A program made the translations under genes and the position numbers. Below are positions 21,815 to 24,582 of a stretch of 64,000 bases of DNA, one piece after another (within the stretch, counting starts at the first letter, position 1; every line of letters begins with the position of its first letter). The notes beneath the pieces were generated by a model. The model was not told where the DNA came from and did no database searches. It was given only the letters and a program-made list of their open reading frames with translations. The stretch is from an uncultured SAR86 cluster bacterium. GTDB taxonomy: Bacteria; Pseudomonadota; Gammaproteobacteria; Magnimaribacterales; D2472. Where the stretch lies: contig CABYNW010000002.1 in assembly GCA_902520495.1 (NCBI GenBank), positions 610 through 64,609 on the forward strand, given 5' to 3'.

Positions 21815-22408
21815 ATGGTAATTATAAGATTGGCAAGAAGTGGGGCTAAAAAGAACCCATATTATTTTATAACTGTTGCAGACGAAAGACGTCCAAGAGA
21901 TGGCGCATTCATAGAAAGATTAGGTTTTTTTAATCCCAGCGCTCAGGGTCAAGAAGAGAGGCTTAGGATAGATCTTGCTAAATTAGAGGAGTGGGTTTCT
22001 AAGGGAGCTCAAGTCAGCGAAAGGGTAAATTCATTAATTAAAGAGGCTAAATTAACTCCAGAAGAATTTGCTGCAAAGGCAGAGGCAAAAAAAGCAAAAG
22101 CAGCTGCTAAAAAAGCTTTGGTTGCTGAAAAATTAGCGAAAGAGGCCGATGAACAAGCTCTGGCTGAAGAAGCTCCTGCCGAAGAAGTACCAGCTGAAGA
22201 AGCTCCTGCTGAAGAAGAAGCACCAGCTGAAGAAGCTCCTGCTGAAGAAGAAGCACCTGCTGAAGAAGCTCCTGCTGAAGAAGAAGCTCCTGCTGAAGAA
22301 GAAGCTCCTGCTGAAGAAGCACCAGCTGAAGAAGCTCCTGCTGAAGAAGAAGCTCCTGCTGAAGAAGAGTCAATTGAAAATGATTCTTCAGAAGATGAAA
22401 AAAAATAA
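21815..22408 (+). CDS. rpsP: 30S ribosomal protein S16 with about 115-aa C-terminal extension (AKKA-rich segment, then AEE(E)AP repeats)
   Basis: The core [30 protein letters not shown]...[12 protein letters not shown] matches S16 (about 82 aa in E. coli). The ORF continues in frame to 197 aa. Confidence 0.9.
22163..22369 (+). repeat. Intragenic tandem repeat array: about 12 units of 15/18 nt (GCTGAAGAA(GAA)GCTCCT) encoding [11 protein letters not shown]
   Basis: Read directly from the sequence: 69 codons composed only of A, E, P plus one V. Confidence 0.95.
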
Positions 22409-22919
22409 ATTAATTTTAATAGCTTCAATTGGTAAGCCTAGAGGCTTAAAAGGCGAATTTTTTCTTAATTCATATTCAAGTCCACCAGATAATATTCTTA
22501 ATTATTTTAATTTACTAAAAAATCATGATGTTTTTGAAGACCTTAATATTGAATATGTAAAAAAAATTAATCTTCGTTTTTACTCTAAGATAACAAATAT
22601 AAATAATATCGATGAAATAGCAAAATATACTAATACTAAGTTATATATTAATTCAAAAGATCTTCCAAGATTATCGCAAAATGAAACTTATTGGCATGAT
22701 TTAATCGGAATGATTGTCATAGATAAAAATTTTGATGAAATACTTGGAGTTGTAGAAGGATTAAATAATTTTGGCGCAGATGATTGTATTATAGTAAAAC
22801 CAACAGAGGCTTCTATTGATAAGAAGAATAGGCTAATACCATTTATTAAAGAAAAATTTATTCAATCAATAGATAAAAAAAAGAGAGTAATAAAAGTAAA
22901 CTGGCAAAAAGATTTTTAA
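22395..22919 (+). CDS. rimM: 16S rRNA processing protein RimM
   Basis: ATG 22395 gives [22 protein letters not shown], the canonical RimM N-terminus, and a 174-aa protein. It overlaps rpsP by 14 nt. The track ORF's upstream 82 codons are an alternate-frame reading of the S16 repeats. Confidence 0.85.
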
Positions 22920-22922
22920 GTT

Positions 22923-23654
22923 ATGAATATTAATATTTTAACAATTTTTCCCGAGATATTTGATATTTTTAATGTTGGCTTAATTTCAAAATCTATAAAA
23001 AAGAATTTAATATCAATTAATACATTTGATATTAGAAAAAACTCTATAAATAAACATAATCATGTAGATTCAAAGCCATATGGTGGAGGCGAAGGAATGG
23101 TTATGATGGCTGAGCCTATTGTAAAGACCCTTTCAGGTATTCAAAAAAGAAAGGTTGGTAAAGTTATATATCTATCGCCTCAAGGAAAAAAATTAGACCA
23201 AAAAAAAGTTATTTCATTAGCGGAAAGAAAAAATTTAACTCTTATATGCGGAAGGTACGAAGGCATAGATCAACGTGTAATTGAAAAATATGTTGATGAA
23301 GAGATTTCAATAGGAGATTTTGTGTTAAGTGGAGGTGAATATGCTGCTATTTGTCTAATTGATGCAATATCTAGACACATACCGGGTGTTTTAGGTAATC
23401 AAGATTCATATTTAAAAGATACATTTTCTAATGGGTTATTAAAAGGACATGTCTTTACAAAACCAGAAATATTTGAATCTATGGAGGTTCCTTCAGAACT
23501 TTTATCTGGTAATCATAAAGAGATTGAGAAATGGAAGCTTGAGAGCTCTTTGCTCCAAACATTTCTAAAAAGACCAGATTTATTAGAGAATAAAAAATTA
23601 TCAAAAAAACAAAAAAAACTCTTGGAAGAATTAGCATCTAAGGCTATCCTATAG
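22923..23654 (+). CDS. trmD: tRNA (guanine37-N1)-methyltransferase
   Basis: It has the blocks ILTIFPEIF, YGGGEGMVM, GRYEGIDQRV and GDFVLSGGE, and sits in the expected operon position. Confidence 0.95.
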   Translation: MNINILTIFPEIFDIFNVGLISKSIKKNLISINTFDIRKNSINKHNHVDSKPYGGGEGMVMMAEPIVKTLSGIQKRKVGKVIYLSPQGKKLDQKKVISLAERKNLTLICGRYEGIDQRVIEKYVDEEISIGDFVLSGGEYAAICLIDAISRHIPGVLGNQDSYLKDTFSNGLLKGHVFTKPEIFESMEVPSELLSGNHKEIEKWKLESSLLQTFLKRPDLLENKKLSKKQKKLLEELASKAIL

Positions 23655-23673: not shown

Positions 23674-24582
23674 ATGAGTGATAACAAAGATAAGAAGAAA
23701 AAGGGCTTTTTTGCTAGACTATTTGGCAGCTCTGATGCGCCTAAAGATAGCAACAATAAAGATACATCTTCAAAAGAAATAAACGAAACTCCTTCATTAT
23801 CTGCAGTGAAAAAAATGAAAAAAGCAGATATAGTTGATTCTGCTAAAGTAAATGGATTGGATTTAGATATTAATCTTACAAAAGCTAAATTAATCGAAGC
23901 ATGGGAGCTGCATTTTAATCCTGATTCTGTATCAAGCACCCCTCAAAAAGAAAAATTAGAAGAAGCACCAACTGAAGAAGAAACACCAGCTGAAGAAGAA
24001 GCACCAGCTGAAGAAGAAACACCACCAGCTGAAGAAGCTCCTGAAGAAGAAACAACAGCTGAAGAAGCTCCTGAAGAAGAAGCACCAACTGAAGAAGAAA
24101 CACCACCAGCTGAAGAAGCTCCTGAAGAAGAAACAACAGCTGAAGAAGAAACACCAACTGAAGAAGCTCCTGAAGAAGAAACACCAACTGAAGAAGCTCC
24201 TGAAGAAGTAAAAGTCTCATTAGATGAAAAGAACCCGTCTCAAATAATTAAAGACTTTGAAACAAAACAAATGAAAACTGATTTACCCAATTTTAGGCCA
24301 GGAGACACTGTCATTGTTTCCGTAAAAGTAAAGGAAGGGCAAAGATCAAGACTTCAAGCATTTGAAGGTGTTGTTATGGGTGTTAAAAATGCAGGATTAA
24401 ATTCATCATTTATTGTTCGCAAGATTTCGAGTGGTATTGGTGTGGAGAGAACTTTTCAAACCCACAGCCCTATGATTGATTCTATAAAAGTAAAAAGAAA
24501 AGGTGATGTTAGACAATCTAAGTTATATTATCTAAGAGAAAGATCCGGTAAATCTGCAAGAATTAAAGAACGTTTAGAATAA
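23674..24582 (+). CDS. rplS: 50S ribosomal protein L19 with 187-aa N-terminal extension
   Basis: The C-terminal 115 aa ([25 protein letters not shown]...[19 protein letters not shown]) are collinear with E. coli L19. No ATG, GTG or TTG lies near the core start, and the ORF is open back to ATG 23674. Confidence 0.85.
23959..24207 (+). repeat. Intragenic acidic repeat region (EE(E)(A/T)P(P)(A/T) units; nested 84-nt and 30-nt duplications)
   Basis: These 83 codons consist of E, A, P and T only. [19 protein letters not shown] occurs twice, 84 nt apart (from about 24011 and 24095). [10 protein letters not shown] occurs twice, 30 nt apart (about 24148 and 24178). Confidence 0.95.

Follow-up and report, generated by a model that had tools for sequence, protein, structure and literature searches.

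The stretch of DNA analysed here, part of contig CABYNW010000002.1 from an uncultured bacterium of the SAR86 cluster (the window, below, means the whole 64-kb stretch; its G+C content is 31.6%), contains rplS, the gene for the ribosomal protein bL19 (L19), at the end of an rpsP-rimM-trmD-rplS operon whose gene order we confirmed both in the window and in relatives. SAR86 bacteria are among the most abundant bacteria of the surface ocean, have small, streamlined genomes and have only recently been cultured. Our comparison shows that their bL19 bears a lineage-specific, three-part N-terminal appendage, which is translated with L19 and maintained by selection. The features of the gene, followed by the other genes of the operon, are listed here with the evidence for each; aa stands for amino acids, ORF for open reading frame, dN/dS for the ratio of non-synonymous to synonymous substitution rates and pLDDT for the predicted local distance difference test score of AlphaFold2.

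23674..24582, + strand: rplS, a single ORF with an ATG start, encoding a 302-aa bL19 with a 187-aa N-terminal extension.
23686..23733, + strand: MinD/FtsY-like cationic amphipathic motif (residues 5-20), a putative membrane-targeting sequence with the SAR86 consensus KKKGFFSRLFGG; invariant residues and dN/dS.
23734..23790, + strand: variable linker 1 (residues 21-39), length-variable and predicted to be disordered; conservation, dN/dS and pLDDT.
23791..23919, + strand: SAP/Rho_N-like helix-extended-helix (HeH) domain (residues 40-82), a probable assignment; AlphaFold2, profile link and dN/dS.
23959..24213, + strand: polyacidic E/P/A/T tandem-repeat spacer (residues 96-180); Tandem Repeats Finder arrays at 23958-24208.
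24241..24573, + strand: canonical bL19 core; PF01245 on residues 190-300 and dN/dS.
21815..22408, + strand: rpsP, the first gene of the operon, whose bS16 product (Pfam S16 on residues 8-68) ends in a K/A-rich segment and an acidic (AEEAP)n tail.
22395..22919, + strand: rimM, 174 aa, with an inferred start and overlapping the end of rpsP; Pfam RimM and PRC_RimM, gene calls in relatives being 173-174 aa.
22923..23654, + strand: trmD, directly upstream of rplS; Pfam tRNA_m1G_MT, E 2e-57.

The identity of the C-terminal part of the protein is plain. The Pfam family Ribosomal_L19 (PF01245) matches residues 190-300 over the whole of its model (positions 1-111 of 111; E 4e-47; 159 bits against a cut-off of 22), as does NCBIfam TIGR01024, rplS_bact (E 5e-46; 155.6 bits against a cut-off of 90.7). 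Because the match covers the complete core from residue 190, with the core taken as residues ~188-302, the first ~187 residues constitute an in-frame N-terminal extension. The rplS ATG stands 20 nt past the stop codon of trmD, and the sequence that precedes it, ctatagccctttttaggcgaatattATG, is kept across relatives. The exact 302-aa product of the window is on record once, as a gene call on a 142-kb NCBI contig.

We scanned one genome per bacterial species with a profile of the first 85 residues of the extension, and 45 loci matched (individual loci and proteins carry L and P numbers here). Most are from the SAR86 cluster and the remainder are generic Gammaproteobacteria or Pseudomonadota. Upstream sequence was sufficient for a comparison at 36 of the 45, and at all of these the extension adjoins trmD; the divergent fragments P0049 and P0091 are also directly downstream of trmD. 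An unbroken ORF runs from an MSDxKDNKKKGFFSRLFGG start into the L19 core at 33 of the loci, encoding proteins of 255-366 aa; at 11 others the contig runs out within or just ahead of the acidic repeat, and at locus L044 the contig begins inside the linker and the ORF is in frame into the L19 core. Among species the extension varies in length from 136 to 247 aa and the frame is always retained, with no stop codon between extension and core in the 33 species.

Across the species compared there is no conserved ATG, GTG or TTG start at the core boundary: eight species have none at all within 45 codons, and the sole recurrent in-frame start is a Met seven codons ahead of FRPGD, which lies within the conserved core and is Leu in many species. 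In the window itself no ATG, GTG or TTG is found at the core boundary, where the Val codons are GTA and GTC, and the only candidate ATG is inside the core. An internal start close to the L19 core is thus ruled out by the lack of a conserved start codon across species. An earlier note, made from this DNA alone, had named a translation start near the core, or a motif not conserved among close relatives, as findings that would speak against its reading; the comparison points the other way on both, with 33 complete in-frame fusions among the 45 loci. Pooled Nei-Gojobori estimates from 11 species pairs gave dN/dS values of 0.10 for the N-terminal motif (codons 1-20), 0.82 for the linker (codons 21-39), 0.11 for the HeH domain (codons 40-82) and 0.05 for the L19 core (codons 184-302). 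Comparing 0.10 and 0.11 with 0.05, we conclude that motif and HeH domain are under protein-level purifying selection nearly as strong as that on the core.

In public data the gene appears in several misleading forms. With residues 1-97 as the query, every protein returned was a stand-alone one of 77-163 aa that lacked an L19 domain (P0001-P0027). However, the short-read contigs L001 (9034 bp) and L002 (2245 bp) loop through rimM-trmD-(5′ part of rplS + tail of rpsP)-rimM-trmD, and the small looped ORFs end in the C-terminal tail of bS16 (…DSSEDEKK); these loops and endings rule out a genuine stand-alone small protein. The rplS repeat and the rpsP tail repeat have an exact 28-nt word in common, and de Bruijn assemblers loop between the two arrays because of it. 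In the long-read SAR86 metagenome-assembled genome (MAG) GCA_045563795.1, on JBJLIK010000037.1 (L053 1406-2348), NCBI calls a 122-aa L19 (P0113) that starts at a non-Met codon at the core boundary, and the frame is open for ~190 codons upstream, from MSDNKDNTKKGFFSRLFGG: the NCBI pipeline trims rplS to the canonical L19 length. At L011 4001-5100, from the long-read MAG LRMED-367, a stop follows after 143 codons, with two frameshifts in the acidic repeat and the L19 frame regained before the core; the probable cause is faulty sequencing of the GAA-rich repeat, and not decay to a pseudogene. A further oddity is P0061 (L048 285-1079, on a 1139-bp Logan contig), in which a portion of the L19 linker, the HeH domain and an acidic tail are joined to L31, near-identical to the extension at L046. 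It is probably an assembly chimera; alternatively, L31 could bear a similar arm in some SAR86. The assembly loops and the pipeline trimming probably explain why the extension has gone unnoticed so far, and marker-gene work that uses L19 or S16 from SAR86 is affected by the same misrepresentation.

At the tip of the extension is a short, basic-flanked peptide (residues 7-19 of 302, at the chain terminus), residues 1-20 having a net charge of +4. The earlier note had likened it to the lipid-binding peptides of MinD and FtsY. Read from the E. coli genome (NC_000913.3), the end of MinD is EEEKKGFLKRLFGG, the start of FtsY is MAKEKKRGFFSWLGFGQ and the FtsY A/N junction is KEGFFARLKRSL, as the note had given them, and the likeness is close: the SAR86 consensus KKGFFSRLFGG is identical to KKGFLKRLFGG of MinD at 9 of 11 positions, and the motif and the FtsY N-terminus have a KKxGFF core and an N-terminal position in common. 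K9, K10, F12, F13, L16 and F17 do not vary across an alignment of 11 sequences, the invariant hydrophobic positions following the i, i+1, i+4, i+5 pattern of MinD with a lysine flank, and over residues 1-20 of 34 full-length orthologues the mean majority-residue fraction is 0.83. A six-frame translation of the window matches the pattern KKG[FLIM][FLIM]x[RK][LIFM][FLIM] at the rplS motif only.

Whether this peptide resembles an amphipathic helix received a divided answer. On a helical wheel F12, F13, L16 and F17 fall in one 140-degree arc (140-280 degrees) and G11, A14, R15 and G18 on the opposite face (340-80 degrees), so that the hydrophobic face is segregated, as the earlier note expected; the hydrophobic moment, by contrast, is at background level (the values are weighed below). 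AlphaFold2 predicts a helix at residues 12-17 only, at low confidence (pLDDT ~55-63), followed by disorder, a predicted structure that we read as expected of a peptide which would fold only on lipid.

Similar peptides were seen in tandem in two unrelated proteins. One (P0035, 1395 aa) has 14 tandem copies of KKxFWSRLFGKR with acidic linkers between them; the other (P0101, 283 aa; L054 4001-4852) has three copies of xFFxRLFGG, again with acidic linkers between, and adjoins MlaFED lipid-transport genes, a context that is not informative enough to use. These arrays suggest that the peptide with an acidic spacer is a reusable, multivalent module.

The peptide is followed by linker residues 21-39, in which the mean majority-residue fraction is 0.35, AlphaFold2 pLDDT is <50 for residues 24-32, and deeper SAR86 lineages have insertions of up to ~50 residues. 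Residues 40-82 are then a conserved domain, which the earlier note had missed. AlphaFold2 predicts helices at 42-46, 50-59 and 70-81 with pLDDT 88-90. The best Foldseek matches are SAP domains (of FAN1, Ku70 and Tho1) and the Rho N-terminus, at root-mean-square deviations of 1.7-2.7 Å, but with E >=0.9; a sequence-profile search of the PDB with the HeH alignment gave as its best match the SAP region of Ku70, a marginal one (E 0.011). A profile built from SAR86 sequences only (A1) and run against 1.8 billion proteins reached P0084 (E 8.8e-6) and P0088 (E 4.7e-5), which Pfam assigns to Rho_N (E 9e-12; 45.2 bits against a cut-off of 24.9) and to SAP (E 5e-27; 93.4 bits against a cut-off of 23.9), respectively. 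Pfam, PF02037 and PF07498 included, found no match to window residues 1-99 or 1-187 at E up to 10, and NCBIfam gave nothing meaningful on residues 1-187 at E up to 1. Because the SAR86 profile reaches proteins assigned by Pfam to Rho_N and SAP, we consider residues 40-82 to be, probably, a divergent SAP/Rho_N-like HeH domain, judging from sequence profiles and the predicted fold. SAP/Rho_N-type domains bind nucleic acid.

Two small, distant HeH relatives, P0097 (130 aa) and P0099 (94 aa; whole-library E ~3e-4 for both), have an N-terminal transmembrane helix and a C-terminal HeH domain, so that a true transmembrane helix stands where L19 has the motif. This pairing suggests that a membrane anchor joined to an HeH domain may be a recurrent arrangement. 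Between the HeH domain and the acidic repeats (extension residues ~85-100) many SAR86 species (L006-L034 and others) have a conserved short motif, PSAVDDAA(T/D)xMAE, which the window protein is without.

The third part of the appendage is the acidic repeat, which spans ~85-150 residues and links peptide and HeH domain to the L19 core. The long acidic E/P/A/T-rich region that the earlier note had described after the motif is indeed present: residues 96-180 of the window protein are 48% E, 18% P, 16% A and 15% T, with a net charge of -40. The acidic tail of bS16, the product of the operon's first gene, comprises 79 residues (119-197, at 22169-22405; tandem repeats at 22150-22399) with a net charge of -34 and ends, in the window, in DSSEDEKK, of which the form DSS[ED]DEKK is conserved; the tail is longer in the relatives L001 and L051, where the proteins are 276-305 aa. 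Thus two ribosomal proteins of one operon bear the same kind of polyacidic repeat.

A search with the L19 core alone revealed a SAR86 lineage in which L19 has an acidic arm only (variant B). These proteins, of 181-195 aa, are abundant, some being found on dozens of contigs of up to 188 kb, and have cores 84-86% identical to that of the window; their arm is purely acidic (MTESDKETITNEE…; MTESDKE… or MNESDKE…), without motif or HeH domain (L051 and L052 4001-4546; P0174, P0177, P0229, P0148, P0152 and P0164 are examples). The synteny is the same, and since rplS begins 22 nt past trmD nothing is hidden upstream of it. In a midpoint-rooted neighbour-joining tree of two genes, TrmD and XerD, the acid-only lineage is sister to the major clade of the window, and the deeper branches (L031, L034, L037 and L035-L046) carry the full module; TrmD and XerD are 65% and 61% identical to those of the window in the acid-only lineage, against 56-60% and 49-57% in the deeper carriers. 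The simplest reading of this two-gene, midpoint-rooted tree is that the module of motif and HeH domain is ancestral in SAR86 and was lost once. The module would therefore be useful but dispensable, and the acidic arm the more persistent feature.

We propose that the L19 peptide tethers ribosomes weakly to the membrane, in a way that depends on avidity, with the acidic arm as spacer and the HeH domain as a second contact, and we give this a probability of about 0.45, judging from the sequence resemblances set out above. The N-terminal peptide would fold as a two-turn amphipathic helix on anionic phospholipid, so that each large subunit would gain a weak, reversible affinity for the inner membrane. 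The MinD peptide KGFLKRLFGG is a portable membrane tag (PMC5471200), and because membrane binding is strong with two copies of the MinD peptide and undetectable with one (PMC6158289), a stable attachment would, by analogy, need avidity: polysomes, with one peptide per ribosome, would be held at the membrane and free subunits would not. The acidic repeat, being repelled by both ribosomal RNA (rRNA) and membrane, would stay extended as a long spacer and could let the tip reach the membrane from the position of bL19, a neighbour of uL14 and H95 at the interface between the subunits (PMC7125091). The HeH domain would bind a second ligand, most likely a nucleic acid (DNA or mRNA). [quoted passage not shown]

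Several observations weigh against such tethering. Lipid binding is proposed solely from sequence resemblance, and the peptide is not distinguished by its hydrophobic moment, which at 0.34-0.36 does not exceed background: 0.34 is reached by 34% of 11-mers in window ORFs of >=200 aa and by 42% of shuffles. The verified peptides of MinD (0.41) and of the FtsY N-terminus (0.25) score no better, however, so that the hydrophobic moment does not discriminate such short peptides. A single peptide per ribosome would be expected, by the MinD analogy, to bind weakly, and anionic membranes should repel the chain that carries it, with its net charge of ~-40. As bL19 is at the subunit interface and not at the tunnel exit, the geometry would also be unlike that of the classical translocon-docked ribosome. 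The bS16 tail has the same type of acidic repeat without a motif-like peptide, and the acidic repeats must on this account have some role that is independent of membrane binding. Finally, the module is dispensable, since an abundant SAR86 lineage nested among carriers has the acidic arm only. We nevertheless consider membrane tethering to be the best-supported reading of these sequences, although the tethering itself would probably be weak and would need many ribosomes to bind at once.

The alternative that we take most seriously, while thinking it rather unlikely, is that peptide and HeH domain bind the ribosome itself or a partner, the peptide docking on rRNA, a ribosomal protein or a translocon or chaperone component and the HeH domain on rRNA or mRNA, so as to alter hibernation, mRNA recruitment or the joining of subunits. 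The uL14/H95 site beside bL19 is where the silencing factor RsfS keeps the subunits from joining (PMC7125091). The unremarkable hydrophobic moment would fit this, a basic peptide on an RNA-rich particle could bind RNA, and folds of the SAP/Rho_N type bind nucleic acid, the best fold matches of the HeH domain being Rho, Ku70 and FAN1 and its relatives being Rho_N and SAP proteins by Pfam. However, the peptide is far closer to proven lipid binders (9 of 11 positions for MinD) than to any RNA-binding motif found, the >100 disordered acidic residues between peptide and core would be an odd design for docking back, and HeH relatives combine the domain with transmembrane anchors. A less probable alternative is that the polyacidic arm itself is the functional part, a charged bristle for ribosome spacing or solubility, cation buffering or the tuning of diffusion in a very small cell, with peptide and HeH domain as minor accessories. 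The repeat is the only part common to the L19 of the window, variant-B L19 and the bS16 tail, and the nesting of variant B among carriers of the full module in the TrmD and XerD tree means that loss of the module is tolerated. Against this, peptide and HeH domain have dN/dS values close to that of the core and are kept across lineages whose TrmD is only 56-60% identical; such purifying selection and retention across distant lineages argue that they have a function of their own.

The earlier note had favoured a third alternative, that the extension is an FtsY A domain moved onto L19 as an SRP-receptor-like shortcut, compensating for altered or missing SRP components, and this we regard as very improbable. 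The architecture is indeed alike as far as an N-terminal KKxGFF followed by ~100-180 acidic residues, as in E. coli FtsY, but the likeness in sequence ends with the peptide: when residues 1-187 were compared by BLASTP with the E. coli A domain and junction, only KKGFFARL aligned with KEGFFARL (E 0.006 for this single comparison), the other matches being compositional or of low complexity. Beyond these eight residues no homology to the FtsY A domain is detectable; moreover, no NCBIfam or Pfam family matches the extension, and the HeH domain of the L19 extension has no counterpart in the E. coli FtsY A domain. It is also true, as the earlier note had said, that ffh is not beside rpsP: a ypjD-like gene and a CNNM/CorC gene lie upstream of rpsP in divergent orientation, the gap before rpsP is ~100 bp, and ffh is not in it, either in the window or in the SAR86 relatives examined (downstream, xerD, dsbC and hom come after rplS). 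A search for SRP-GTPase motifs in the 64-kb window gave none, so neither ffh nor ftsY was found there. This location shows only that ffh lies elsewhere, which is no evidence of its loss and says nothing about SRP, and the L19 fusion, being without an NG GTPase domain, cannot serve as an SRP receptor; the proposed shortcut is without supporting evidence. Lastly, that the extension is an artefact (an independent gene upstream, a wrongly called start or a chimeric assembly, with the real L19 starting near residue 185) can be practically dismissed. The stand-alone N-terminal versions, the 122-aa L19 of a close relative and the interrupted L011 might each be cited for it, but they go back to assembly loops at the shared 28-nt word, to a frame that is open ~190 codons further upstream and to a frame that is restored before the core, respectively. 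In addition, one ORF is kept in 33 independent genomes, mostly single-cell assemblies, no ATG, GTG or TTG stands at the core boundary in the window, and the dN/dS values show that the protein sequence is under selection.

The structural facts are firm, and the function is a testable hypothesis, for which the SAR86 lineage without the module is a natural control. In its widest form, which we hold to be doubtful as a whole, the hypothesis is that across most of the SAR86 order L19 carries its own peripheral anchor and a nucleic-acid-binding HeH domain on an acidic leash, so that avidity would keep polysomes at the membrane, possibly with a bridge to DNA or mRNA, without any need for signals in the nascent chain. 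The accepted view is that bacterial ribosomes are brought to the membrane by the nascent chain (SRP/FtsY, SecA) or by factors that act in trans. If the hypothesis is true, a core ribosomal protein that contains its own membrane-targeting peptide would offer another route, and SAR86 would have evolved, by extending bL19, a bacterial parallel to the mitoribosome with its permanent attachment to the membrane.

Full-text literature searches gave no description linking SAR86, L19 and an extension or membrane-targeting peptide, and the closest known systems each share one aspect of the appendage. FtsY of E. coli, with its N-terminal helix MAKEKKRGFFSWLGFG, is like the L19 extension in having an N-terminal KKxGFF and then a long acidic, probably disordered region rich in E/P/A/V/T. 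The L19 extension differs from it in its mid-extension HeH domain and tandem repeats, and L19 is without the NG GTPase domain, the second lipid-binding helix or any known SecY-binding segment. Of the two helices with which FtsY binds lipid, the proteobacterial one at the N-terminus of the acidic A domain contributes to membrane binding; the A domain itself is not essential, and many bacteria are without it (PMC4602035), much as one SAR86 lineage has lost the module. The MinD membrane-targeting sequence is like the SAR86 peptide in its F/L-F/L-x-x-L-F pattern, lysine flank, GG cap and position at a chain terminus. However, it is C-terminal and on an ATPase whose dimerisation turns avidity on and off, whereas the L19 peptide is N-terminal, one per ribosome and on a long acidic tether, and there is no homology between MinD and L19 beyond the peptide. 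The SAP/Rho_N domains, such as the Rho N-terminal subdomain and those of Ku70 and FAN1, resemble the L19 domain in its predicted helix-extended loop-helix of ~40 residues.

Other systems are alike in the outcome that we propose. The protein mL45 is an integral part of the mitoribosomal large subunit at the tunnel exit and binds the Oxa1L insertase (PMC8998825), and proteins of the YqjD family (YqjD/ElaB/YgaM) are C-tail-anchored ribosome binders (bioRxiv 10.1101/2024.08.16.608256). In mL45/Mba1 and YqjD/ElaB/YgaM, as proposed for the L19 arm, a protein element and not the nascent chain keeps ribosomes at the inner membrane, although neither group has any sequence relationship to the arm. YqjD, moreover, acts in trans through a transmembrane anchor and inactivates ribosomes, whereas the L19 arm has a putative peripheral peptide that is built into a core ribosomal protein of the subunit interface. 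None of the systems compared is homologous to the whole appendage, and none is a core bacterial ribosomal protein with its own anchor; rather, the SAR86 L19 combines elements of known kinds, a ribosomal-protein extension, a terminal amphipathic anchor and an HeH domain, in a new way.

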